Positions 7,164 to 45,403 of a stretch of DNA of 64,000 bases are shown here, piece by piece; within the stretch, counting starts at the first letter, position 1; each line of letters opens with the position of its first letter. The stretch covers positions 672,001-736,000 of the forward strand of contig CAVQQD010000002.1 of the NCBI GenBank assembly GCA_963714975.1. The letters are read 5' to 3'. The position numbers and the translations under genes were made by a program. The DNA comes from an uncultured Gammaproteobacteria bacterium. Lineage in GTDB: Bacteria > Pseudomonadota > Gammaproteobacteria > JAURND01. Under the pieces are notes generated by a model, which did no database searches, was not told the DNA's origin, and worked only from the letters and a program-made list of their open reading frames with translations.

Positions 7164-7451
7164 ATGGTGGTTATGTCTGATAATTGTGTTGGGACTATTT
7201 TTAAATATGCGGGAATATCCGGGTCTGTGGCAGGAGTGTTTTTTTGTATGATTAATTACTTAAAAGACAAGGATAATCAAATTAGCCCCCAAGTTTACCT
7301 TAATCTCGCACTGGTGATTATTGGTGCTGCTGTAGCAGGTGGCTTGATTGGGTGGTTAAAGAATTGTTATCAGCAAAAAGATGAAGATTGGACCGATATT
7401 GTGGAGGTGGGGGAACAGATAATAGAAGAGCCTAGTAATCTTAACCCTTAG
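7164..7451 (+). CDS. hypothetical small membrane protein (two TM segments, acidic tail)
   Basis: 95-aa ORF with AAGGA SD and two hydrophobic segments; antisense to minC/minD and between them. Confidence 0.55.
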   Translation: MVVMSDNCVGTIFKYAGISGSVAGVFFCMINYLKDKDNQISPQVYLNLALVIIGAAVAGGLIGWLKNCYQQKDEDWTDIVEVGEQIIEEPSNLNP

Positions 7452-8118
7452 TTCCCTCAATACAGATCTTCTCGCCCTCTAAATAAACCTGGACCATAGG
7501 TGCAGTAATTTTTGGGATATCCTCCTGCAATTTGTAGAACCCTGCTATTGAGACCAATTCCGCCTCAAGTTGTTGGGCAAAAATGCGCGCTGTTTTATCA
7601 CCTTTTACTCCTGCTAAGGCCCGGCCACGTAAACTGCCATAAACATGAATAAAACCATCGGCAAGAATCTCAGCGCCATGGCTCACAGAAGATAAGATGA
7701 CCAAGCTACTATTGCGGGCATAAATTTGTTGCCCTGATCTTATAGGCTTATCCACCAGTAAAGTAGATAGGGGCGCAGCAACCTTGGCCTTAGCTGGGGT
7801 GGCGCTACTAGTTTGGTGAGAAAGTAAAGCCAAACCCGCGGTTTCTGCAGCCTTGTTTTGGATGGTGTTGCCATGGCGGACTCCAACTGGAATTAAACCA
7901 TGTTCGCGCAAATAATGTTGAATGGCAGTGAAGTCAACATTGGTTTCTACTTGATTAATTCTTTGCAGATCAATAACTAACGGCATGTTTTTAAATAAAT
8001 TTGGAGTTTTTTGGGCATGTCTTCTTAGATCAGCGACAAAGAGATTAAGATCGGGATTTAACAAGTGAAGCACCGTAAGGGTAATCATACTGCCTTTGAG
8101 TTCAAAAGCACTTTTCAT
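7441..8118 (-). CDS. minC: septum site-determining protein MinC
   Basis: MKSAFELKGS, PIRSGQQIYA, VSHGAEILADG.IHVYGSLRGRALAG, AELVSIAG. Start moved to ATG 8118; the ORF-track extension runs through a structured element. Confidence 0.95.
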   Translation of the reverse strand: MKSAFELKGSMITLTVLHLLNPDLNLFVADLRRHAQKTPNLFKNMPLVIDLQRINQVETNVDFTAIQHYLREHGLIPVGVRHGNTIQNKAAETAGLALLSHQTSSATPAKAKVAAPLSTLLVDKPIRSGQQIYARNSSLVILSSVSHGAEILADGFIHVYGSLRGRALAGVKGDKTARIFAQQLEAELVSIAGFYKLQEDIPKITAPMVQVYLEGEKICIEGTKG

Positions 8119-8164
8119 TTTTGCACATACCTTATGCAGGATAATCGGAATGCAAATTTTGCAC

Positions 8165-8372
8165 CAGTTTAGCGGTGAACACAAGCTGCAGACGCAACGC
8201 CTTCGGAGTCCTGCCGCTCGGTCACCCGCCGTGTGGGAAAAGGGATAAGAAGTAGCTGCCGTACCTTCCGAGGGGAGAAGGTTGGTACGGCACAAGCCGA
8301 AGGGTTGCTCGCGCGTCAGGACCCGTAGGCAAGCTGGGAGTGGCAACGTTGTAGACTGAGGCACCGGCTTTT
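8165..8372. other. GC-rich multi-hairpin intergenic element
   Basis: Stems TGCCGTACC/GGTACGGCA and GCAACGCCTTCGG/CCGAAGGGTTGC; shares a GCG(G/T)CAGGACCCG-like motif with 39131-39162 and 55422-55450. Confidence 0.55.
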
Positions 8373-8399
8373 GTTTATCATTAGCAAAAAGGAGAATTT

Positions 8400-10109
8400 A
8401 TGTCGGAAAAAATTTGGCTCAAAAATTATCCCCCTGGTGTTCCTGCGGAAATTGATTGCCATGCTTATGAATCCCTGGTCGATTTATTTGAACAATCCTG
8501 CACACAATTCGCTGATAAACCAGCACTTAGCAATTTTGGCACTACTATTAGCTATGCCAAATTAGACAGCTTAAGTCGCGATTTTGCCGCTTATTTGCAG
8601 CAAGTACTACAGATTCCGCCAGGTGAACGCATCGCTATCATGTTGCCCAACGTCATGCAATATTACGTAGCCATGTTTGGTGCTCTGCGCGCTGGTTTAA
8701 TCGTGGTGAATGTCAATCCTCTGTATACCCCACGCGAACTTACTCATCAGCTCGTTGATGCGCAAGTCACCACCATCATTATTATGGCTAATTTTGTCGA
8801 GACATTAGCTCAAAGCTTGCCTCAAACCTCATTGCAACAGGTGATTGTGACCCGCCTAGGGGATTTATTTCCCTTCCCAAAAGCGACTATTTTTAACTTT
8901 GTGCTGCGCTATATCAAAAAACAAGTGCCTGCTTGCCGTCTACCCAAGGTAATTTGGTTTAAACAGGCTTTATCCACAGGTAAAAAATGCAAGTTTGAAA
9001 AAATTGCTCTGACCCAAAAGGACATCGCCTACCTCCAGTATACTGGAGGCACTACTGGCGTCCCCAAGGCAGCAGTATTAACTCACGGCAATATGGTTGC
9101 GAATGCTGAGCAAGCTTATGCTTGGGTTATGGCGAGTAATCTACAACCAGGTAAAGAAATCATCATCGCGCCATTACCCCTGTATCACATCTTTTCCCTC
9201 ACCGCTTGTGCCTTATGTTTTTTTAAACTGGGAGGGATGGCGGTGTTGATTACTGATCCACGCGACATTAAAAACCTAGTGCGCGAACTAGAAAATACTG
9301 AATTTTCGGCGATAATTGGCATCAATACTTTGTTTGCTGCTTTGCTACATAACCGACATTTTCGCCAACTTAACTTTGCAAAATTAAAACTCGTGGTTGC
9401 AGGAGGTATGCCATTACAACGTTCTATTGCTGAGCAATGGTATCAACTTACCCATATGCCGATCCTAGAAGGTTATGGTCTCACGGAGGCTAGTCCTATT
9501 GTGACGGTGAACACTTTCAATAGTCAGGTTTTTACTGGCAGTATTGGCTTGCCTGTGCCTTCAACCGATGTAGTCATTCGCGATGATAATGCAGACTTGC
9601 CAATTGGAGTAGCGGGTGAACTATGCGTTAAAGGTCCGCAGGTGATGAAAGATTATTGGCATTATCCCGAAGAAACCAAAGCAGCCTTTACCGACGATGG
9701 CTGGTTGCGAACAGGTGATATTGCCAAACTGGATGAGGAGGGCTATGTCTACTTGTTAGATCGGAAAAAGGATATGATTTTGGTCTCTGGATTTAATGTG
9801 TATCCTAACGAAGTGGAAGAGGTATTGGTAAGTCATCCTGGGGTATTGGAAGCGGGTGTGGTGGGTATTCCCAGTGATACTACCGGGGAGGCAGTAAAAG
9901 CCTATATTGTCAGACAATCTCCCGCGTTGACTAGCAAAGAAATTATTGCTTTTTGTCATCAGCATTTGACAGGATATAAAATCCCGCGGGTGATCGAATT
10001 TGTTGATGAGCTGCCGAAGTCTTATGTGGGCAAGGTGTTACATCGAAAACTAAGAAAAATTCCCTCTCCCCCGCCCGAGCGCCAGCGAGGGAAGGTGGGA
10101 GAGGGTTAG
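8400..10109 (+). CDS. fadD: long-chain-fatty-acid--CoA ligase
   Basis: LQYTGGTTGVPK, EGYGLTEASP, GWLRTGD, RKKDMILVSGFNVYPNEVE, LPKS.VGKVL. Confidence 0.94.
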   Translation: MSEKIWLKNYPPGVPAEIDCHAYESLVDLFEQSCTQFADKPALSNFGTTISYAKLDSLSRDFAAYLQQVLQIPPGERIAIMLPNVMQYYVAMFGALRAGLIVVNVNPLYTPRELTHQLVDAQVTTIIIMANFVETLAQSLPQTSLQQVIVTRLGDLFPFPKATIFNFVLRYIKKQVPACRLPKVIWFKQALSTGKKCKFEKIALTQKDIAYLQYTGGTTGVPKAAVLTHGNMVANAEQAYAWVMASNLQPGKEIIIAPLPLYHIFSLTACALCFFKLGGMAVLITDPRDIKNLVRELENTEFSAIIGINTLFAALLHNRHFRQLNFAKLKLVVAGGMPLQRSIAEQWYQLTHMPILEGYGLTEASPIVTVNTFNSQVFTGSIGLPVPSTDVVIRDDNADLPIGVAGELCVKGPQVMKDYWHYPEETKAAFTDDGWLRTGDIAKLDEEGYVYLLDRKKDMILVSGFNVYPNEVEEVLVSHPGVLEAGVVGIPSDTTGEAVKAYIVRQSPALTSKEIIAFCHQHLTGYKIPRVIEFVDELPKSYVGKVLHRKLRKIPSPPPERQRGKVGEG

Positions 10110-34725: not shown

Positions 34726-35826
34726 ATGTCCAGTAATTCATTTGGAAATATTTTTCGCATCACCACCTTTGGTGAATCTCATGGCAAAGGAATTGGTGTC
34801 GTGATCGATGGTTGTCCCGCAGGATTAGCCCTAGAGGATGAAGATATCAACCAAGCCTTGGCCTTACGTGCTCCAGGTCGAAATCCCTATACTTCGCCAC
34901 GACAAGAAGCGGATCGAGCCGAAATTTATTCTGGGGTTTTTCAAGGAACAACCACGGGCGCTCCCATCGCCATCATTATCCTCAATAAAGATGCCGATTC
35001 CACTAAATACGAACCGATAAAAAATTTATTGCGCCCGGGCCATGCTAATTTTACCTATCTGGAAAAGTATGGCATTTTTGACTACCGTGGCGGAGGGCGT
35101 TCCTCAGCTCGTGAAACTGCCTGTCGGGTAGCTGCTGCCGCGGTGGCGAATAAATTATTAGCAACGGCAGGTATTACGGTAGCGGCTTATTTATCTGCAG
35201 TCGCGCAAATAAAAGCCAGCGTCAAACTGGATACTCCTTTAGAGCAGTGGCTTCCCAATATTTTACAAAGCCCTATTTTTTGCCCTGATCCAGTAGCCGA
35301 AACGCAAATGCAAGACTTGATCCTAAAAGCAAAGGAGCAAGGTGATTCCTTAGGTGGGGTGGCCACATTTGTGGCGACTGGCTTACCTGTGGGCCTAGGG
35401 GATCCGATCTATGAAAAAATAGAAGCCAACCTGGCTAAAGCCATGATGAGTTTACCGGCTACTAAAGGGTTTGAAATGGGAGAGGGTTTTCATGCCGTAG
35501 AAATGCATGGTTCCGAACATAATGATCCATTTATTATGGCTGAGGCGGAGCATAAAATCAGACCGGCAAGTAATTATGCCGGCGGAACCTTGGGTGGAAT
35601 AACTACAGGCCTGCCCTTATTAGGCCGGGTAGCGTTTAAGCCGACTTCCAGCATTACCAAGCCGCAAACCACCGTCAACTTAGCAGGGGATGCTAAACCC
35701 TTTAACTTGCCTGAAGGATCACGCCATGATCCCTGTGTCGCCATTCGTGGGGTACCCTGTGTCGCGGCGATGTGCTCTTTGGTGTTGGCGGACGCACTCC
35801 TATTGAATCGTTGTGTCAGGCTATGA
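34726..35826 (+). CDS. aroC: chorismate synthase
   Basis: TTFGESHG, RPGHA, RGGGRSSARET, FKPTSSI, RHDPCV. Confidence 0.96.
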   Translation: MSSNSFGNIFRITTFGESHGKGIGVVIDGCPAGLALEDEDINQALALRAPGRNPYTSPRQEADRAEIYSGVFQGTTTGAPIAIIILNKDADSTKYEPIKNLLRPGHANFTYLEKYGIFDYRGGGRSSARETACRVAAAAVANKLLATAGITVAAYLSAVAQIKASVKLDTPLEQWLPNILQSPIFCPDPVAETQMQDLILKAKEQGDSLGGVATFVATGLPVGLGDPIYEKIEANLAKAMMSLPATKGFEMGEGFHAVEMHGSEHNDPFIMAEAEHKIRPASNYAGGTLGGITTGLPLLGRVAFKPTSSITKPQTTVNLAGDAKPFNLPEGSRHDPCVAIRGVPCVAAMCSLVLADALLLNRCVRL

Positions 35827-36932
35827 AGACCTTATTAGTTCAGGCGGTAAGACCTTATTCTATCTATATCGCACCCGGCTTGCTAGACTCCTCTTTTTTA
35901 GTTGAGAAAATCCGCCCGCTAGGGCATCGGTTTGTAATCATTAGTGATTCTCAAGTCGCCGAATTGCTAGGCGAGCCTTGGTTAATTTTCTTATGTTCCC
36001 AGGGTTTGACTGTGGGTCTCATCAAATTTCCTAGTGGAGAAGCGTTCAAAACTCGCCAGACTAAGCAGCAACTTGAGGATGAATTATTTTTATTAAGCTG
36101 CCAGCGTGATACGGTCATTTTAGCCCTGGGAGGCGGGGTGGTTACGGATTTAGCTGGTTTTGTTGCCGCTACTTATTATCGTGGTATACCGGTTGTATAT
36201 ATCCCGACCAGCTTATTGGCCATGGTCGATGCGAGCATTGGCGGGAAAACCGCAGTCGACACTCCTTATGGTAAAAATTTAATTGGGGCATTTAGTTCAC
36301 CACGAGACGTATTTATCGATCCCAGCTTATTGCAAAGCTTACCAGAGCGAGAATTACGCAATGGCGCAGTTGAAATGATTAAGCACGCATTGATTGCTGA
36401 TCCGGATTTGTTTTTGCAATTACAACAACAACGCGAAGCCTTCTTCGCCTGTGACCCATTGATTCTCCAAGATTTAATTGAACGAAATTGCCAAATAAAA
36501 CGCCATGTTGTAGAGATAGATGAAATGGAGCAAGGTTTGCGGCAATTATTAAATTTTGGGCACACGATAGGACATGCCATAGAAAATCTAGATCAGTACC
36601 AAATACAGCATGGCGAAGCCGTTGCGATCGGCCTTATTTTAGAGAGTTTTCTTTCTCACCGGCGTGGTTATTTGTCCGCGGAAAATTTAAAAAAAATTCA
36701 AGAGATTATTTTTGCTTATGGAGTTAATTTGCAAACTACTGCATTGCAAGATGAGAACGCGTTTTGGCAGGCTTTAACTTATGATAAAAAAGCCAAAGCA
36801 GGGCAGGTACAAGTCGTAATGCTCGATGACATTGGTAAACCTCATCATGAACAAAATCAGGTTACCGTCAGCATTTCTCGAGAGGAAATAGCTGTTATGT
36901 TGCGAGAATCTGCTAGTTTATTGAATCATTAA
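35823..36932 (+). CDS. aroB: 3-dehydroquinate synthase
   Basis: GE..K, LGGGVVTDLAGFVAATY.RG, PTSLLAMVDASIGGKT, LNFGHTIGHAIE, HGEAVAIG; ATG overlaps the aroC stop. Confidence 0.95.
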   Translation: MKTLLVQAVRPYSIYIAPGLLDSSFLVEKIRPLGHRFVIISDSQVAELLGEPWLIFLCSQGLTVGLIKFPSGEAFKTRQTKQQLEDELFLLSCQRDTVILALGGGVVTDLAGFVAATYYRGIPVVYIPTSLLAMVDASIGGKTAVDTPYGKNLIGAFSSPRDVFIDPSLLQSLPERELRNGAVEMIKHALIADPDLFLQLQQQREAFFACDPLILQDLIERNCQIKRHVVEIDEMEQGLRQLLNFGHTIGHAIENLDQYQIQHGEAVAIGLILESFLSHRRGYLSAENLKKIQEIIFAYGVNLQTTALQDENAFWQALTYDKKAKAGQVQVVMLDDIGKPHHEQNQVTVSISREEIAVMLRESASLLNH

Positions 36933-37061: not shown

Positions 37062-38750
37062 ATGAGCACAGCAAGGTCTGAAAAATTATTGAAAGCTATC
37101 AGGCAAGATGATGCAACCGCGGTTAGACAGATAATTGCCTCTGCAGAAGAAAATATTAATCAACTATTTCCCATAGATAATTGGAGAGAAATGGTCCCAA
37201 TAACCTATGCAATCACCTTGGGGAAAACACAGGCTTTAAGTGCTTTATTAGAAGCAAAACATTTACAAGTAAACCAAATAAACCTCGAAGGAGAAGACCC
37301 TCCCTTATTTCTTGCAATGAAAAACGACCAGTTAGAGTGCTTCAAAATTTTATTAGCCGACCCGAGGGTTGATATCAATGCAACTGGCACCATGTACAAA
37401 TACACTCCATTGATTGCGAGTGTTTCAACAAAAAAAAAACAATTCTTCCAGGCTTTACTTGACTCAAAAAGAGCGAGCGAACTTGATGTAAACAAACAAT
37501 GTCAAGACACGGTAGGCTCAGCAATTGGTTGGGCTGCCTTTAGAGCTGACTTATTTTATCTGCAAAAATTGTTGCGCCACCCTAAAATAATAATACAGGA
37601 TGATCAGAATCATATTAAAGATAAACTTGATAATGAGAAGAATCTCTCCAAAGCTGAAGATTTGAGATTGCTTGAAGAAGCCGTTGCACGCGGGCGTTTG
37701 AATGCAAATACAAATGAAAATCCCCAGCCCCCTAGTGAAAATAAAGTTACTGCACTTCAGCCTATCAGCGACGAAACAAGGCCTAACAGATTACTTCAAG
37801 CAATAAATGATGATAACGAAGAGGAGATTAGGCGGATAATTACCTCAAAGGAAGAGAATATTAATAAACGATTTACTATTGATTGTGGGGACGTCATGGT
37901 TCCTTTAACCTATGCAGTTACTAAGGGCAAAGCAAAGGCTTTAAAAGCTTTATTAGAGGCAAAGGATATAGAGTTAAACCCCAAAGAAGTGTCTGGCCTC
38001 CCTTTATTTCTCGCAATGAAAAACGACCAGTTAGAGTGCTTCAAAATTTTATTAGCCGACCCGAGGGTTGATATTAATGCAACTGACACTATGTACGCCA
38101 TTACTCCCTTGATTGACAGTGTTTATAAGAAAAAAGAACTATTCTTTAAGGCCTTACTAGAATCAAAAAGAAAAATAGATGTAAACAAATCTTCTGAACT
38201 ATCCACAGCACTTGAATGTGCTTGCAAGCCTACTGAACTATTTTATCTGCAAGCGTTGTTGCGCCTTCCTGAGATAACAGTACCTGATAAATCCCTCTAT
38301 GGTTCAGATATTCAAGTTGCTGCGCACATTAGATCCAAGCTTGATACAGCGCAAAATCTCTCAAGGACTGATGATTTGAGATTTTTAGACCAAGCCATTG
38401 CATGTGGAAATCCTGACCAAGGCAAATATAAGCGTAGATCAGGCATTTTTGTAGCTGTAGCAATTCCTTTAATTTATACCATTGGAGTTATCGGAATCCC
38501 TTTGGGATTTACGCGCAAACCTCAGGAGACCTATGAAGCTTTTGAAAAATTACATTTAGACGGTTTAATAGATAACATTTCGGAGTCGACAAAGGCCCAA
38601 GTAATGGCTGGGATGATAGGAGGGGTGCTTTTAATTGCATTGTTAGTTACTGCAGGTATTTTAATTAAGAACAATCCACCACCCGCAAAAGAATCTAAGG
38701 ATGATGGTAACCATTCACCACAATTAAATGGCAGCCAAGCCTTACAATGA
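37062..38750 (+). CDS. ankyrin-repeat protein with an internal duplication and a C-terminal TM pair (candidate effector)
   Basis: Repeated P(I/L)TYA..., PLFLAMKN..ECFKILL...DINAT and TPLI motifs; two ~230-aa modules; two hydrophobic segments near the C-terminus. Confidence 0.82.
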   Translation: MSTARSEKLLKAIRQDDATAVRQIIASAEENINQLFPIDNWREMVPITYAITLGKTQALSALLEAKHLQVNQINLEGEDPPLFLAMKNDQLECFKILLADPRVDINATGTMYKYTPLIASVSTKKKQFFQALLDSKRASELDVNKQCQDTVGSAIGWAAFRADLFYLQKLLRHPKIIIQDDQNHIKDKLDNEKNLSKAEDLRLLEEAVARGRLNANTNENPQPPSENKVTALQPISDETRPNRLLQAINDDNEEEIRRIITSKEENINKRFTIDCGDVMVPLTYAVTKGKAKALKALLEAKDIELNPKEVSGLPLFLAMKNDQLECFKILLADPRVDINATDTMYAITPLIDSVYKKKELFFKALLESKRKIDVNKSSELSTALECACKPTELFYLQALLRLPEITVPDKSLYGSDIQVAAHIRSKLDTAQNLSRTDDLRFLDQAIACGNPDQGKYKRRSGIFVAVAIPLIYTIGVIGIPLGFTRKPQETYEAFEKLHLDGLIDNISESTKAQVMAGMIGGVLLIALLVTAGILIKNNPPPAKESKDDGNHSPQLNGSQALQ

Positions 38751-38795
38751 TAAATTTAGCTCTATAAAGTTTTGTGGGTAAAAACCAGTGAATGA

Positions 38796-38850
38796 TCCCT
38801 TCTCCCACAGCGATTTTCTGTGGGAGAAGGTGCCGAAGGCGGATGAGGGC
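38796..38850. repeat. boxC-like repeat
   Basis: TCCCTTCTCCCACAG...CTGTGGGAGAAGGTGCCGAAGGCGGATGAGGG. Confidence 0.82.
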
Positions 38851-38851
38851 A

Positions 38852-38955
38852 GATGTACTCCGATTTATGGATCAGGATTATGTCCCTTTCACTAACAATC
38901 AAGGTGAAAATGACATTCGTATGACCAAAGTTCAGCAAAAAATATCAGGATGTTT
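38852..38955 (+). pseudogene. IS66-family transposase fragment
   Basis: VLRFMDQDYVPFTNNQGENDIRMTKVQQKISGC matches the IS66 C-terminal VPF.NN.AE.DIRM.KV.QKISGCF motif. Confidence 0.8.
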
Positions 38956-39008
38956 AGGCGCGCATTACTATCTTGCTGAGTTTCTAATACAGTTAATTGC
39001 GCTAGCAG
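38953..39008 (-). repeat. 56-bp copy of an internal piece of the Rpn-like gene
   Basis: 53/56 identical to 42419-42474, same orientation. Confidence 0.85.
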
Positions 39009-39101
39009 GAAAGCAGGTTAGACTAGAAGCAGCAGAGGTAGGATTTTGGCGGAGCAGCCGAAATGTTGCTCTGCTGCTTCGTGCATAATCCTAGGTTTTT
39101 G

Positions 39102-39188
39102 GTGAGCTCAAACTGAACTGAAGTCCCGTCGCCCGCCTACGGGGTCCTGCCGCGCGAGCAACGGGACTTCAGTTCAGTTTGAGCTCAC
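39102..39188. repeat. hairpin element with perfect 28-bp arms
   Basis: GTGAGCTCAAACTGAACTGAAGTCCCGT (39102-39129) and its exact reverse complement (39161-39188). Confidence 0.88.
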
Positions 39189-39294
39189 GAATCTCCTAAC
39201 CTTATGTAGTAGAAAATTCGCAGCTATATACTAGACTTACACGGAATAGGTTAAGTTATATGTGGAAATTTGTGAATTTTATGGGAGGTGTGTT

Positions 39295-39432
39295 ATGAGA
39301 ATTGAGAAAAAACCTGTTAAAATTTTAGATCCAGATTATGGTCGAAAGTGGACTAATGGAAATGGACCAGGAAAAATTGATGAAAAAGAATATTTGTCGT
39401 TGTGTGAAAAGGTAAAAAAATTGGAAAAATGA
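39295..39432 (+). CDS. 45-aa candidate RiPP precursor peptide (not in ORF track)
   Basis: GGGAGGTG SD then MRIEKKPVKILDPDYGRKWTNGNGPGKIDEKEYLSLCEKVKKLEK*; directly upstream of, and co-oriented with, two YcaO genes. Confidence 0.72.
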   Translation: MRIEKKPVKILDPDYGRKWTNGNGPGKIDEKEYLSLCEKVKKLEK

Positions 39433-39468
39433 TCCGCAGGGTCAAATTAAATGCATTAACTAAATATT

Positions 39469-39493
39469 AAGCTGTCATATGACATGGCAGCTT
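39469..39493 (+). terminator. stem-loop between the peptide gene and ycaO (leaky terminator or mRNA stabiliser)
   Basis: AAGCTGTCAT-ATGAC-ATGGCAGCTT stem (one G-U pair), with only a weak T-tail. Confidence 0.55.
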
Positions 39494-39533
39494 GATTTCG
39501 TTCGTTATATAATCCGGCGGGCTTATTCCTATC

Positions 39534-40739
39534 ATGATAAATTTCGAGCGTTCCTTCTCTCCCGATAATGCAATACACTATTTTGATAATAAAGAACATA
39601 ATTTAGAGATTGATTTAATTCGTTTTGATGGTAAATACCCAGTATATAAATGTTATTTGACCGATAATAATAATTCTCATACCTATATTGGTGGCGGTGG
39701 AGGATTGGGGTCTGCGAGCCAGGCTGCTGCACTTTTTGAATCTGCACAACATTATTTTTCGACACGTGGGTTACAAGATAATCTAAAAGACATCCATTTT
39801 TTTCCTATCGTTGAAGCCCCAGAATTGGGATATCTGTCAAAAACTGAATTTTTACCGGGTAATTTATGCAACTTCCCAGATCAAGAGCTTCCTTGGTTAC
39901 AATATAAAAGTTACACGGATGAACAAATCATCTATTATCCAGTAACATTGACCGAAGTTAGGTTGCACCATTTTCCTAAATTTAAAGATTATATGGATTT
40001 TAATTGGATGAGCCATGATACTGGCATGGCCATTGGCAGTGATTTTATGGAGGCAAGTATACATGGCATCAACGAATGGATTGAACGCGAATCATATGGT
40101 TTTTTATTATTGAAGTTATTTATTAATAAATCGAATAAAAAAATTCGTTTGCTAGATCATTTCACTATCCCAGAACATTTATTTCAACTTGTGAAATATA
40201 TTGAGCAAAATTTTAGCGATGATCTATTGATCGTTGATATAACTAGCGATATAAATGTACCTGCTTTTCTTGTCTCATTTACCAAACAACCAGCAATTTT
40301 CCAACCAAGGGGAATGGCTGCCTCATTATCCAAATCTTGTGCCTTGGAACGTGCTATCTATGAAGCTTTGCAGGCACGCATGCTTTACAATGAGAAATCT
40401 AAAGAATCGGAGTTTCATTGCATTAAGTCTTTAAAAAATACTCCTTTATTGTTAAAAGCTGCAGAATGTAACCTGACAGATTTAATCAATAACGACGAAT
40501 ATGTGTCTATTAATTTTTCGCAAGTTGCTGACTATTCTTCTTTGACCGACTTATCTGAACAGCTCAATAAACTGCATAATTTATTAAGCAGTAAAGGTCT
40601 TAAGGCTTTTTATCATTACTATGCATTAACTGATCACCTGGTATGTTTAGGGGTTATTATTCCAGGGCTAGATCAGTTTTTTATGGTGAGATGTGGTAGG
40701 TTTATTATGCCAAATTCTCGAGGATTGCAACTTTTGTAA
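39534..40739 (+). CDS. YcaO-family protein A (degenerate N-terminal ATP-binding motif)
   Basis: DTGMAIG...EASIHGINEWIERES, VDITSDINVPAF, G.AAS....ALERAIYEALQ, VIIPGL. Confidence 0.88.
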   Translation: MINFERSFSPDNAIHYFDNKEHNLEIDLIRFDGKYPVYKCYLTDNNNSHTYIGGGGGLGSASQAAALFESAQHYFSTRGLQDNLKDIHFFPIVEAPELGYLSKTEFLPGNLCNFPDQELPWLQYKSYTDEQIIYYPVTLTEVRLHHFPKFKDYMDFNWMSHDTGMAIGSDFMEASIHGINEWIERESYGFLLLKLFINKSNKKIRLLDHFTIPEHLFQLVKYIEQNFSDDLLIVDITSDINVPAFLVSFTKQPAIFQPRGMAASLSKSCALERAIYEALQARMLYNEKSKESEFHCIKSLKNTPLLLKAAECNLTDLINNDEYVSINFSQVADYSSLTDLSEQLNKLHNLLSSKGLKAFYHYYALTDHLVCLGVIIPGLDQFFMVRCGRFIMPNSRGLQLL

Positions 40740-40758
40740 AAATAAAGGATAAATATTT

Positions 40759-42015
40759 ATGGATGAGAACTTTATCAATTGTGAACGCATTGTTCCTTCT
40801 ATCCAAGCTTTGAAGATTGTCATGACGGAATTAAATCATCTGGGTTTAGATTTGGAGTATAAATGTGCGGGAAATACTCTGCAAACATATCATTGCAAAT
40901 TGATTGATCCAGTGAATAATTGGATTTTTTATGGTTGTGGTAAGGGTATCGGCATCCAATCGAAGGTCAGTGCTACATTTGAGGCTCTGGAACATTATTA
41001 TTGTTATAAACTTGCTACCAATAATAAACATGATTCTTTAAAATTTATGAGTTATGCAGAGGTGTTGGGTAAAGAGTCAAATCTACCGGTATCAAATTTT
41101 TTACCTAAACGCATGATCGCAGAGGAATTTAGCAACATCACTCTGCCTTGGGTTGAATTTGTAACTTTTCAAAATAACAACGAATTTTATTATCCGTTAT
41201 TCTTAATCGAGCCCCACTATCTTAAATTTGGCGATAAATTTAATGAAGATTATTATGATTACCAGGATTTATGCTCATTAGCCTGTGACTCGGGGACAGC
41301 TTCAGGTAGTTCATTTATTGAGGCAGCGCTGCATGGACTAAATGAATGTGTTGAGCGTGATGCAACTTCAATTTTTTTAGTAGAAGCTTTCCTTAAACAA
41401 AACCCTATTCATTTAATTGATAAACTAACTTTACCTGAGAACTTGCTTCAATATGTCAAATTAATTGAGGAAGAATTTGATGATGAATTGGCAGTTGTAG
41501 ATATTACCTCTGATAGCGGTATCCCAACCTTTTGTGTAGCGTTTACTAGACAAAATGTATTGATACAACCCAAGGGATTTGGTACTTCATTAAATAAAAA
41601 TTATGCCTTGGAGCGAGCACTATTAGAATCATTACAGCCTTTGCACTTACGTAATGCAAATTTAGTGCAAATGGAAAAAATTATTTTACAAAATTTTGTG
41701 TCATATCCTAAATTACAGGCTGCAGCTATTGCAGATATAGCACAGATGGTTACGGATAAGAATTTTATTACCACTTCTTTTCAAAAATTAGCGGATCCTA
41801 TCCAAAATTATTCAGACATTTCCAGTCAATTAGTAGAAATTATCCGTAGAATAAACGCGATTGGATTAACCCCACATTACATGTATTTAACTGCAGCAGA
41901 AAATGAAGTGACTTGCTTAAAACTTATAGTTCCTGGGATGGATAACTTCTTTTTAGTTAGCGATGGAAAGTTAGTGTTGCCTGGTAAACGTAGTCTTAAA
42001 GAGAAGGATTTTTAG
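40759..42015 (+). CDS. YcaO-family protein B
   Basis: GKG....SKVSATFEALEH, DSGTASG...EAALHGLNECVERDA, VDITSDSGIPTF, ALERALLESLQ, LIVPGM. Confidence 0.92.
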   Translation: MDENFINCERIVPSIQALKIVMTELNHLGLDLEYKCAGNTLQTYHCKLIDPVNNWIFYGCGKGIGIQSKVSATFEALEHYYCYKLATNNKHDSLKFMSYAEVLGKESNLPVSNFLPKRMIAEEFSNITLPWVEFVTFQNNNEFYYPLFLIEPHYLKFGDKFNEDYYDYQDLCSLACDSGTASGSSFIEAALHGLNECVERDATSIFLVEAFLKQNPIHLIDKLTLPENLLQYVKLIEEEFDDELAVVDITSDSGIPTFCVAFTRQNVLIQPKGFGTSLNKNYALERALLESLQPLHLRNANLVQMEKIILQNFVSYPKLQAAAIADIAQMVTDKNFITTSFQKLADPIQNYSDISSQLVEIIRRINAIGLTPHYMYLTAAENEVTCLKLIVPGMDNFFLVSDGKLVLPGKRSLKEKDF

Positions 42016-42048: not shown

Positions 42049-42261
42049 CTAATCAGCAAACACCTCATCTAAGGTTTTAGCATCAAAAATACGATCAGCC
42101 CATAATAGGAGCGTATCGGCATCAGCTTGCATAACCTGGGTTAGGTAAGTGGAGGGTATCGAGTGAAAGCGACGCTGCAGCAGGCGAATTAATATAGTAG
42201 ATTCACCTTGTTGAATCCCCTCTTGTCTGCCAATACGTTGTGGGGTAGTAATATAATTCAT
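42049..42261 (-). CDS. intact internal 70-aa ORF, putative Rpn small (antitoxin-like) protein
   Basis: GAGGAGGAAAAACGT-ATG internal SD and start; MNYITTPQRIGRQEGIQQGE...LDEVFAD*. Confidence 0.5.
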   Translation of the reverse strand: MNYITTPQRIGRQEGIQQGESTILIRLLQRRFHSIPSTYLTQVMQADADTLLLWADRIFDAKTLDEVFAD

Positions 42262-42704
42262 ACGTTTTTCCTCCTCAATATGTTTTATGGCCTGATTGTA
42301 TATTGGCTCGAGTTCTTTGGGAAGGGTAATCAGCCAATCAAGCAAAGTAAATAACCGAATAATATCTTGTTTACTATAGCCTTTCTCATATAATTGGCGT
42401 GTAAGAGCCGTCTTAGCTTTTAGGCGTGCTTTACTATCTTGCTGAGTTTCTAATACAGTTAATTGCCCTAGCAGCACTATGGCAAAGCGATTGTTGGCAG
42501 CTTCAAGTTCTTGCCGACGGGTTTGATATGAACTCTTTATCCAAGGATTCGTAGTCTTTAAGACCAATCAATTTGTGTTGCAATATGGGGAAAACAAAAC
42601 TCCATAAAATCGCGAAAATAAAGGCCCAAGCTTTGTTTCCAGGGACTGTCATAATCGGGGCGAGTATCTTGTTTTTCAATAGGTGTAATTGTCTCGGTAT
42701 TCAT
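42049..42704 (-). pseudogene. Rpn/YhgA-like PD-(D/E)XK nuclease gene with a DUF4351-like C-terminus, disrupted
   Basis: From ATG 42704: ...DYDSPWKQSLGLYFRDFMEFCFPHIATQIDWS*DYESLDKE (in-frame stop). The central nuclease core is missing and the frame changes to ...ELEAANNRFAIV...EGIQQGE..ILIRLLQRRF...LDEVFAD. Confidence 0.8.
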
Positions 42705-42835: not shown

Positions 42836-42912
42836 GCGCGCGGTACGGATGTTACAAGCATCCGCGACCGAACTTCCACATGACAACTCAGTCAGGAGTT
42901 AGCCATATGACG
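42836..42912 (-). ncRNA. SymR-like antisense RNA
   Basis: Minus strand GTCATATGGCTAACTCCTG...CGGTCGCGGATGCTTGTAACATCCGTACCGCGC parallels E. coli SymR as recalled (GTCATA..GCTA.CTCC...CATCCG.ACCGCGC). It covers the SD and ATG 42907 and has its own TTGGAA-N16-TAAAAT promoter inside the ORF. Confidence 0.6.
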
Positions 42913-43743
42913 TTTTTGATTTTAGCCTATCGTTGGTTGTTTCCAAACTGCTTTTTACATTTTGCCCCTGGTTGTCGTTTTCACCTTACCTTTTTGCAAT
43001 TGCGTAATGCAGCGATTAGTAATTTGTTAACGCGCAAGGATCCTTATTGGAAAGAGCTTCCGCTGCACTTATCTGCACGATTGGCATTAGTCCGCAGAAT
43101 GGACAAATTAAAAGCGAGCCTCCAGGAAGATAAAAAAGTAGTAAGATCTTTATACCCTTTGGTGTCATACATTACTGATTTTTCTGGAATTACTAATTTT
43201 TTGCCTAAAGAAGGCAAGTTAACAAAAAACGTTTTGGATGCGGATAGCCGGGCATTAGAGCGAACAGTAACATTGTATGAACGATTTTGCTCATCTACCT
43301 CTGAAGTCAAAGAGGCAAAGGACACAGATCATAACCCCACTCTCGAAATTAAAGGCACAAAGCCTCGAGACCTTGAGCTCGTCACAGATAATTCCGGCTC
43401 TTGTTGCAATATTAAGAAGATATTAAATTTTACTGCGCAAGGCATTGTTACATTACATGTATCCTCAGCTGTGACAATTGCTGTAACGGAATTAGGAAGC
43501 GTGGTAAAGGAATCCATTGGTAGAGGTTTTTTTGCCACAGTTACTAAATTCAATGACTTAATGTTGCAATCGAACTTTACTAAGGGAATAAGCGGGGCTT
43601 ATTTTGGATTAGCAGTTATATTATTTTTACTATGGCTTGCAAATAACTATCGTAAGAATAATTATATTCAAAAGGCACAGCATAACGACTACGAACAAAG
43701 ACTGCCTACAGCTAATTCTGCTATGACTCAACAACCGATTTAA
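42907..43743 (+). CDS. hypothetical protein with C-terminal hydrophobic segments
   Basis: Long open frame; CAGGAG SD before ATG 42907; TM-like AYFGLAVILFLLWLA near the C-terminus; no family recognised. Confidence 0.55.
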   Translation: MTFLILAYRWLFPNCFLHFAPGCRFHLTFLQLRNAAISNLLTRKDPYWKELPLHLSARLALVRRMDKLKASLQEDKKVVRSLYPLVSYITDFSGITNFLPKEGKLTKNVLDADSRALERTVTLYERFCSSTSEVKEAKDTDHNPTLEIKGTKPRDLELVTDNSGSCCNIKKILNFTAQGIVTLHVSSAVTIAVTELGSVVKESIGRGFFATVTKFNDLMLQSNFTKGISGAYFGLAVILFLLWLANNYRKNNYIQKAQHNDYEQRLPTANSAMTQQPI

Positions 43744-43975: not shown

Positions 43976-45403
43976 ATGCGTGTTGCAAGTATTATTGCTA
44001 ATAATTATGTCACTGCTCAGCAGCAAATAGCTGAAGCGGTCCCCTATGCTGACGTGATTGAATTACGTTTAGATTATTGGTCTAGTTTAGAGATTAGTGA
44101 AGTAAAAGAATTACGCGATTCCCTCACTTTACCAGTATTATTTACCTTGCGCACGAAAAGCCAAGGGGGTCATTGCACGCTTGAAGAATCGCAGCGTTTA
44201 TTGTTGCTTGAGCAATTGGCAAGTTTATTACCAGATTATATGGATTTGGAATTTGACGTTCCGGTTGAGTTTGCGCTTGCTTTGCGAGAAGAGTTTCCAC
44301 AAATTCAATTGATTCGCTCCTACCATGATTTTACTCAGACCCCAAATAATTTAGAAGCTTTGCTGCAAAAATTATATCATCCAGCCTTTCATTTCATTAA
44401 GATCGCAGTGTTTGCGCACACTATTCTCGACACGCTGCGTTTATTGCTATTTATCCAGCAAAATAGCCAAAAATATTCACTCATTGGCATTGCTATGGGC
44501 GAGTACGGCGAAGCCAGCCGCATTCTGGCACCAATATTGGGTAGTCGATTTACTTATGGCAGTATCAATACGGAGCAAGCAGCAGCGCCAGGGCAACTTA
44601 GTTTGGCAGAATTAACTAACACCTATCGGGTGCAGTTATTAAATCGGAGCACTGCTATTTATGCTTTGCTGGGGGACCCAGTAGCTTCAAGTCGCGGACC
44701 GATCTGGCATAATGCTTATTTTGCTAGTCATGATAAAAATGCAGTGTACATTCGCCTGCGTATTCCACCGGCTGATTTAGCGGCAGCAGTTGGGTATTTA
44801 CGACAATTACCCTTTTTTGGTTTTAGTCTCACCATGCCGCTAAAAGAAGATATTTGTCCGCATTTGGATCAGATCGATGAAGCGGATAAAGCCATTGGGG
44901 CGATTAATTCTATTGTAGTTACCGATGGAAAATGGCTTGGATTTAATACTGACGGTAAGGGAGCTATTGCTGCCATTGCTCAGCAGACAAGTGTCGCGAA
45001 TAAAACCGTGGTTATTTTAGGCGCGGGTGGGTCAGCAAAAGCGATTGCATTTGAGGCCGCAAAGCAAGGTGCTAAGCTTATTGTATTAAATCGCACTCCC
45101 GAGAAAGCAGAGCAATTGGCGCGATGGCTCAAAGCTAGAGGAGGTGGATTTGATCAACGCGATGGGTTATTAACAGAGGGTTATGATGTACTGATCAATA
45201 CCTTACCTCCTGCGGTCAATAATCGTGTCGAAGATTTTCCCTTACAAGCCACGCATTTTTTGCCAGGCGCAGTGGTAATGGATATTGTTTACAACCAAGG
45301 TGACACAGCCTTTCTCAAGTTAGCTAAATTAGCTGGCTGTCGCATTGTCGACGGTAATGAGATGTTTGTCCAACAGGCACTTTTACAACAGCAACGATGG
45401 TAA
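43976..45403 (+). CDS. aroDE: bifunctional type I 3-dehydroquinate dehydratase/shikimate dehydrogenase
   Basis: IELRLD, FTLR...QGG, SYHDF, IKIA, AMG..G..SR, AAPGQ (AroD); then G.PV..S..P..HN, TMPLKE, GFNTDG, LGAGGSAKA, NRT, DIVY (AroE). Confidence 0.92.
   Translation: MRVASIIANNYVTAQQQIAEAVPYADVIELRLDYWSSLEISEVKELRDSLTLPVLFTLRTKSQGGHCTLEESQRLLLLEQLASLLPDYMDLEFDVPVEFALALREEFPQIQLIRSYHDFTQTPNNLEALLQKLYHPAFHFIKIAVFAHTILDTLRLLLFIQQNSQKYSLIGIAMGEYGEASRILAPILGSRFTYGSINTEQAAAPGQLSLAELTNTYRVQLLNRSTAIYALLGDPVASSRGPIWHNAYFASHDKNAVYIRLRIPPADLAAAVGYLRQLPFFGFSLTMPLKEDICPHLDQIDEADKAIGAINSIVVTDGKWLGFNTDGKGAIAAIAQQTSVANKTVVILGAGGSAKAIAFEAAKQGAKLIVLNRTPEKAEQLARWLKARGGGFDQRDGLLTEGYDVLINTLPPAVNNRVEDFPLQATHFLPGAVVMDIVYNQGDTAFLKLAKLAGCRIVDGNEMFVQQALLQQQRW

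Follow-up and report, generated by a model that had tools for sequence, protein, structure and literature searches.

Several unusual chemistries of the peptide backbone originate from YcaO enzymes, and no substrate is known for most stand-alone members of the family. In the biosynthesis of bottromycin, two YcaO enzymes are at work, one of which forms a thiazoline and the other a macroamidine, with one of the pair being called divergent (10.1101/2020.05.04.076059). The YcaO of Escherichia coli is described as thioamidating a Gly-rich loop of the ribosomal protein uL16 without TfuA (PMC13063428), and the ATP-driven cleavage of a peptide is ascribed to the YcaO protein MusD (PMC10885120). Here, we describe a cassette from an uncultured gammaproteobacterium (assembly GCA_963714975.1), which lies in a window of 64,000 nt (contig CAVQQD010000002.1, positions 672,001 to 736,000) and in which a gene for a 45-aa peptide is followed by the genes for two stand-alone YcaO paralogs, designated YcaO-A (A) and YcaO-B (B). 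The peptide gene and the YcaO pair constitute a compact, mobile, YcaO-dependent three-gene unit that is real and probably new, and its product, as judged from the sequence, is probably an enzymatically modified peptide of a kind not described before.

The peptide gene (39295..39432 of the window, + strand) encodes the candidate precursor and was recognized from its translated open reading frame (ORF), family conservation, linkage, and the ratio of nonsynonymous to synonymous substitution rates (dN/dS). A preliminary description of this DNA had proposed the gene as an unannotated ORF with a strong Shine-Dalgarno (SD) site; we confirmed the translation and, by inspection, the SD sequence GGGAGGTG (39283..39290, + strand), which ends 4 nt 5' of the ATG and has its GGAGG core 6 nt 5' of it, but the gene was not wholly unannotated, since several Legionella records already list it as a 'hypothetical protein'. 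The two co-oriented YcaO genes recognized at that time, 19 nt apart, were likewise borne out, with the products of A (39534..40739, + strand) and B (40759..42015, + strand) scoring 102.7 and 130 bits, respectively, against a cut-off of 25.7 for the Pfam family YcaO (PF02624). A, the diverged paralog, has 401 aa, compared with 404 in its relatives, and B, the canonical paralog, has 418 aa, compared with 417; all three ORFs are intact and full-length, and A and B are 34% identical to each other. The cassette is, as had been stated, richer in AT than the aro genes on either side (GC content of 0.33-0.35 vs 0.43-0.49).

The peptide gene and the YcaO pair occur together. Relatives of B (60 proteins at E<=0.001 among 6366 candidates) were found in Legionella waltersii, L. 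quinlivanii, other Legionella, Coxiella burnetii Dugway, and many unnamed assemblies, and at the 18 reference-genome loci a small ORF directly 5' of the YcaO pair was recognized in four cases by BLAST and in four by eye, each of the eight being preceded by a purine-rich SD site 5-9 nt ahead of its start. Hidden Markov models (HMMs) for the peptide, A, and B were scanned against 85 sources comprising the window, these 18 genome loci, and 66 metagenome loci. The A/B pair was present in 17 sources, two of which were cut inside A at a contig end, and the peptide ORF was located 5' of A in all 15 pair loci with upstream DNA (13 distinct loci, with L014/L015 and L017/L036 being near-duplicates), whereas none of the 68 single-YcaO loci gave a peptide match. 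The similarity between the window and its closest relative, locus L031, is limited to 39301-42010, and because it spans this range only, the cassette of approximately 2.7 kb may be taken as the unit that is conserved and transferred. The sole other recurrent neighbor is a gene for a LysR-type regulator 3' of B in five Legionella-type loci (L012-L015 and L017; ~7260-8580), which is absent from the window.

The distribution of the cassette is patchy. It was detected neither in eight genomes of the same family nor, at E<=1e-40, in 399 others that could be scored in a sample of the class, and a plasmid collection contained no close copy (best match, 29% identical). The known hosts include amoeba-associated or intracellular lineages (several Legionella species, C. 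burnetii Dugway, and uncultured gammaproteobacteria) as well as high-GC genomes, and this host range suggests a portable function of general cellular use, not a narrow antibiotic. At L018, L019, and L035, two of which belong to metagenome-assembled genomes labeled Actinomycetota, the GC content is 0.40-0.49 in the cassette and 0.62-0.66 in the flanks, and this sequence contrast points to either a recent cross-phylum transfer or chimeric bins.

An alignment of the eight peptides from the reference loci showed D12, D14, G16, R17, G22, G24, G26, Y33, and L36 to be invariant. When the profile built from them was searched against 5.8 billion proteins, 64 further clusters were retrieved (E of 6e-18 to 1e-6), all of which are 37-89 aa in length and for which 'hypothetical protein' was the sole name given; 21 of these clusters are on contigs equal in size to those with B-type matches. 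Across 56 aligned peptides, D12, D14, G16, G22, G24, G26, and Y33 remained invariant, and the family of 65 sequences follows the pattern [YF]8-x-x-[LM]-D-[KP]-D-[YF]-G-R-x3-[VA]-G-x-G-[YF]-G-[ES]-[IFL]-[DSN]-x3-Y-x-x-L, preceded by an N-terminus that varies in both length and sequence. A conserved small ORF beside homologous YcaO pairs and a conserved G/N/P loop within it, both of which the preliminary description had proposed looking for, are thus present in the family, the latter as G22, G24, and G26. The 65-peptide alignment contains no conserved Cys, Ser, or Thr column, and, because of this, an azoline product is unlikely, in agreement with the earlier view on polyazoles.

The window peptide is the most divergent member of this family and has Pro at the aromatic position 25, at which its nearest relative from L031, a locus with a B protein 71% identical to that of the window, has Ile. 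The dN/dS value of the peptide gene is 0.19 between the window and L031 and 0.11-0.24 in the five pairs for which it was computable, with three further pairs being saturated. The ORF is far from what chance would give and, by these substitution ratios, the gene is under purifying selection. In an AlphaFold2 model based on the 56 sequences, residues 30-44 form a helix and little regular structure precedes it (predicted local distance difference test [pLDDT], 72), and this prediction is in accordance with the helical C-terminus that had been suggested. The peptide had no match in Pfam, NCBIfam, or PADLOC, and a protein atlas gave no usable match for a Legionella member of the family.

Regarding the two YcaO paralogs, their assignment relies on Pfam matches, a tree, and residue patterns, to which a structure model is added for A. 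In a tree of 207 YcaOs, built from matches of 340-470 aa and the locus proteins with fused and short matches left out, A formed a clade of 19 tips (support 0.98) with two subclades, A1 and A2, and B formed a clade of 60 tips (support 0.67); the two clades were unmixed, and A and B are, according to this tree, old paralogs. We compared residues, in B numbering, at positions that are near-invariant in 129 other YcaOs. B retains K62, S71, E75, E78, H79, E196, E199, R200, R286, and E290 in 59-60 of 60 sequences, whereas the A protein of the window has G at K62, A at S71, and Q at E78. The replacement E78Q is found in all seven sequences of A1, the subclade of the window, together with Lys for R200 and for R286 in four of the seven each, while A2 is characterized by R286Q (11/11), K62S (10/11), S71K (11/11), and the loss of H79. 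The former statement that the cassette encodes two YcaO enzymes is correct as to family, but may be too simple as to function because A lost residues that are invariant in B. One report describes such a motif as typical of YcaO domains (PMC10352776).

B is also conserved more strongly than A in all 45 pairwise comparisons among 10 loci (mean identity of 0.46 vs 0.37; the pairs are non-independent), and the predicted structure of A is a complete and confident YcaO fold (pLDDT, 90.9). Neither A nor B had a match in PADLOC, and, since the peptide had none either, a known defense system is unlikely. Two proteins of approximately 800 aa from high-GC organisms, P0151 and P0172, contain two complete canonical YcaO domains in tandem; we considered them as possible A-B fusions and rejected this reading because both halves are B-like and canonical, which assigns them to another lineage. 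A charge match between enzymes and peptide was also discarded, the isoelectric points showing no pattern.

The spacing of the genes suggests that their expression is coupled. The A and B genes overlap by 4-35 nt in seven of 10 loci, and the distance from the peptide gene to A is between -1 and 33 nt in six of 10. In the window, the corresponding spacer of 101 nt contains a hairpin with a 13-bp stem (39466..39496, + strand), inside which the previously noted stem-loop (39469-39493) falls; the spacer has a minimum free energy (MFE) of -26.1 kcal/mol (z = -2.97), and two of 200 shuffled sequences folded equally well. The hairpin has a weak T-rich tail on its 3' side and was not picked up by a simple terminator scan, while L031 has an identical stem sequence and a clearer T-tract. 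The proposed order of precursor, hairpin, and enzymes is, therefore, valid for the window and L031, but not family-wide. As judged from its sequence, the hairpin is probably a leaky terminator or attenuator, and with its T-rich tail it may raise the ratio of peptide to enzymes in these two loci. The best sigma-70-like match of the region (10/12, at 39484-39513) is situated between the hairpin and A and could be a separate promoter for the enzymes; such sites are no more frequent in the region than in shuffled sequences. Near-perfect long palindromes were also observed between the peptide gene and A in L033 (573-840; MFE of -190) and L013 (4499-4778; -110 kcal/mol), and because they were inserted there, this intergenic spot appears to tolerate repeat insertions.

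The best explanation for these observations, to which we assign a probability of roughly 0.45, is that the three genes are a single operon, mobile by horizontal transfer, for a peptide that is made by the ribosome and modified by enzymes, with the 45-aa product as the substrate, B as the catalyst, and A as a presenting subunit. We infer these roles from the patterns described above. The variable N-terminus of the peptide would be dispensable, the amphipathic helix at its C-terminus (Y33, L36) would be the recognition element, and the part to be modified would be the invariant loop D12-x-D14-[YF]-G16-R17-x4-G22-x-G24-x-G26, in which B would phosphorylate a backbone amide oxygen in an ATP-dependent manner. 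A, an old paralog whose nucleotide site has been reshaped, would form a hetero-oligomer with B and mainly hold and present the peptide, in place of the E1-like partner or RiPP recognition element (RRE) of other YcaOs (RiPP, a peptide that is synthesized ribosomally and then modified post-translationally). Between a peptide-holding subunit and a second catalyst, we lean only slightly toward the former for A.

Since no Cys, Ser, or Thr is conserved, the activated amide would not be trapped as an azoline, and the outcome may instead be a thioamide, an amidine-type ring, or ATP-driven cleavage. We tentatively place a backbone thioamide first, for which the uL16 reaction of E. coli is a precedent; an amidine-type ring closed by a nitrogen, such as that of Arg17 or a neighboring backbone NH, is a possible outcome that comes next, and cleavage, for which MusD is a precedent, is less likely. 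The product would probably remain intracellular and act there as an entire small protein in modified form because no protease or exporter is linked to the cassette and the C-terminal two-thirds of the peptide are conserved.

Several points weigh against this explanation. The residues E75, E188, H192, E199, E290, and Q293 are retained in 18 of 18 A sequences, by which the active site of A still appears to be constrained, and A may be a working enzyme. The positions substituted in A are reportedly ones that bind ATP/Mg (Dunbar et al., 2014), and we know of no precedent for an attack by Arg or by a backbone NH on an amide activated by a YcaO. A variable N-terminus combined with a conserved core and C-terminus is the reverse of what is found in most RiPP precursors. 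Moreover, TfuA is present in three of five cassette-bearing genomes and no sulfur-transfer gene is linked to the cassette, and the A gene carries a frameshift at L016 and L019 while the B gene is split at L021, which indicates that the cassette decays in some hosts.

The alternative that survives best, with the odds still some way against it, also regards the peptide as the substrate, but has both YcaOs active, with separate modifications placed by each of them at different sites, such as the [YF]15-G16 amide and the G22-x-G24-x-G26 loop, in parallel to the bottromycin YcaOs. The altered residues of A would then reflect a different chemistry and not a lost activity, which is consistent with the six residues retained throughout A, the complete fold of its model, its maintenance as a separate clade across the family, and the presence of two separate invariant Gly-containing blocks in the peptide. 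Bottromycin also supplies a precedent for two partner-free YcaOs of which one is divergent (10.1101/2020.05.04.076059). However, the two subclades lost different residues (E78 in A1; R286, K62, and S71 in A2), a pattern better matched by a relaxation of catalytic constraint than by a single new chemistry that was conserved, A evolves faster than B in each of the 45 comparisons, and the overlap of the A and B genes in seven of 10 loci fits a complex.

Less probable still is the possibility that the small protein is an adaptor, regulator, or decoy and that the target of the pair is some folded protein of the cell, for instance, a ribosomal one with a Gly-rich loop. Outside its N-terminus the peptide is conserved in the manner of a small folded protein, unlike a variable RiPP core, no protease or exporter is linked to it, and E. 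coli YcaO is described as acting on uL16 without a nearby peptide gene (PMC13063428). The uL16 protein of the genome under study (G000:C2:207895-208281, L097) contains the stretch R-Q-G-K-G-K-G-P-V-E-Y, which loosely resembles G-x-G-x-G-x-[IV]-[DE] of the peptide, and the equivalent loop in E. coli is described as a site of thioamidation by YcaO (PMC13063428). This likeness is, however, one of a low-complexity motif with a different spacing to Arg and Tyr, and may be due to chance. The linkage of the peptide to the pair without exception (15/15 vs 0/68), its position as the first gene of the operon, where a precursor is usually encoded, and the self-contained nature of the cassette in very different hosts, including those with flanks of 0.62-0.66 GC (L018, L019, and L035), also argue against an adaptor.

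We regard as similarly improbable a reading in which B, the catalytic YcaO, and A, a pseudo-YcaO that became the subunit presenting the peptide, form a heterodimer that closes a ring in an ATP-dependent manner within the invariant G-x-G-x-G loop, yielding an intracellular cofactor or signal that is sensed by the LysR-type regulator of Legionella. The nucleophile would be the backbone NH two residues on or the guanidine of Arg17, and the product would be an imidazolinone- or cyclic-amidine-type ring, namely, an enzyme-made counterpart of the chemistry of green fluorescent protein (GFP) and methylidene-imidazolone (MIO) groups.

The surroundings of the cassette also bear on its origin. A 56-nt direct repeat brackets the cassette exactly, being present at 38953..39008 (+ strand), inside mobile-element debris, and, with 95% identity, at 42419..42474 (+ strand), inside a truncated DUF4351 gene (42049-42567, - strand; Pfam scan). 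The genome contains at least six paralogous stretches of the DUF4351 family, and the left repeat copy is a stray piece of such a paralog; this arrangement suggests an insertion or recombination within the repeated DUF4351 gene family. On the left side there are also a fragment ORF of an IS66 transposase (38792-39088; Pfam scan) and a palindromic repeat element with 53-nt arms that are 83% complementary (39084..39206, not assigned to a strand), which is one copy of a dispersed family with approximately nine other matching places in the genome. The flanking elements are, accordingly, multi-copy, and the earlier mention of mobile debris was justified. Also in this region, a 31-nt sequence at 38819-38849 has at least 21 exact copies spread over all three contigs.

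On a larger scale, a run of aro genes (aroC, aroB ... fused aroD-aroE; 35772-36932 and 43976-45403) is broken by approximately 7 kb of low-GC, repeat-rich DNA, which contains an ankyrin-repeat gene, the cassette, and an ORF of 287 aa. The ankyrin-repeat protein (562 aa; 37062-38750), encoded between aroB and the cassette, resembles the Dot/Icm effector AnkG/LegA7, but at 76 bits remains below the cut-off of 500. The 287-aa ORF downstream of the cassette (42880-43743) was considered as a fourth cassette gene and rejected, as it has no family match and shows no relationship to the LysR gene located 3' of the pair in Legionella. Neither in the flanking ORFs scanned against Pfam and NCBIfam nor among the conserved neighbors was a family of the E1/ThiF, dehydrogenase, TfuA, protease, or transporter type revealed, in agreement with what had been stated on adjacent partners. 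Despite its low GC relative to the flanks, the repeats and gene fragments that bracket it, its absence from the eight same-family and 399 sampled class genomes (E<=1e-40), and relatives with a broken A or B, it is very improbable that the cassette is a passenger of recent arrival in this genome, silent or decaying and without a present function, given that its three ORFs are intact and full-length relative to those of relatives, the SD site and hairpin are kept, and the dN/dS value is 0.19 against L031.

The interest of the cassette lies in its being a minimal, self-contained three-gene system of approximately 2.7 kb with a clear candidate substrate that lacks the usual nucleophiles. It may turn out to thioamidate a dedicated peptide without TfuA or to bring about a new ring chemistry, and may show whether a YcaO paralog can replace an E1-like or RRE partner. 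In the literature, we found no description of this family of a peptide with a YcaO pair, which might be listed in the supplementary YcaO-network tables of two studies (PMC13063428, 10.64898/2025.12.02.691738).

When compared with known YcaO types, both paralogs remained well below the family cut-offs: 67.5 bits for A and 79.3 for B against 219.25 for TIGR03604 (SagD type, azoline), and 39.5 and 64.2, respectively, against 365 for TIGR03266 (McrA thioamidation), while NF040716 (E. coli type; cut-off, 700) gave 24 bits with B and no match with A. A proline-rich (PxPxP) C-terminus is a feature of azoline-forming cyclodehydratases, and among 11 A and B proteins no C-terminus is proline-rich, which extends what had been remarked on for the two window proteins. 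The best solved relative of both paralogs by profile is MJ1094 (E of 4.9e-21 for B and 1.2e-11 for A), ahead of MusD, TruD, and LynD, and the A model superposes over its full length on MJ1094 (6peu; template modeling [TM] score of 0.74/0.77) and on the Methanopyrus kandleri enzyme. This match of a predicted fold suggests that the compact architecture is shared and points only weakly to the chemistry.

The McrA-glycine YcaOs (MJ1094 and that of M. kandleri; TIGR03266) and E. coli YcaO are, like the paralogs of the present study, compact and free of partners, although the E. coli type is longer (~570-590 aa vs 401 and 418 aa). They are described as modifying a backbone amide in a Gly-containing loop, with an adjacent TfuA being dispensable (PMC13063428). 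Their substrates are large folded proteins encoded elsewhere, whereas in the present family a 45-aa gene dedicated to the purpose always adjoins the enzyme genes, of which there are two paralogs.

The bottromycin precursor uses a follower peptide, and the recognition part of the present precursor similarly appears to be C-terminal. Bottromycin clusters carry many tailoring genes (methyltransferases and P450 among them) as well as hydrolase, protease, and export genes, in contrast to the three genes of the cassette, and the N-terminal bottromycin core requires a Cys together with an amine that is free at the N-terminus, whereas the present family lacks a conserved Cys, varies at its N-terminus, and has one paralog with altered canonical residues. 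As in the cassette, two YcaO paralogs are described per cluster, both without an E1-like or RRE partner (10.1101/2020.05.04.076059). Streptamidine-type clusters and ItfB also combine stand-alone YcaOs, two of them in a subset, with precursors that have no Cys/Ser/Thr-rich core and with amidine products (10.1101/2020.05.04.076059; PMC10352776). Their precursors have an ALV motif or a C-terminal Phe, unlike the cassette peptide, and their clusters contain additional amiB, amiX, amiE, or radical-SAM genes and belong to Actinobacteria and Bacteroidales; we saw no sequence relation between these precursors and the cassette peptide.

With the enzymes of the azoline-forming thiazole/oxazole-modified microcins (TOMMs), linear azol(in)e-containing peptides (LAPs), and cyanobactins (SagD, McbD, LynD, TruD, and MusD), the cassette has in common the YcaO fold and, presumably, ATP-dependent amide activation. 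It differs from these systems in being without an E1-like/ocin-ThiF partner or fused domain, a dehydrogenase, a Cys/Ser/Thr-rich core, and a proline-rich C-terminus. In YcaO-TfuA thioamidation (thioamitides, thiovarsolins, and the McrA type), TfuA is adjacent, whereas neither the cassette nor its conserved neighbors include one. The only TfuA of this genome adjoins a third YcaO on another contig; this YcaO of 382 aa, followed by a long TfuA-domain protein (G000:C3:472783-474238; L001, L030), is a separate pair of the classical thioamidation type. With RiPP clusters in general, the cassette shares a short, co-oriented precursor gene strictly linked to the enzymes, and its novelty among them resides in the combination of paired YcaO paralogs with a nucleophile-free, Gly-rich core in a YcaO-dependent RiPP-like system.

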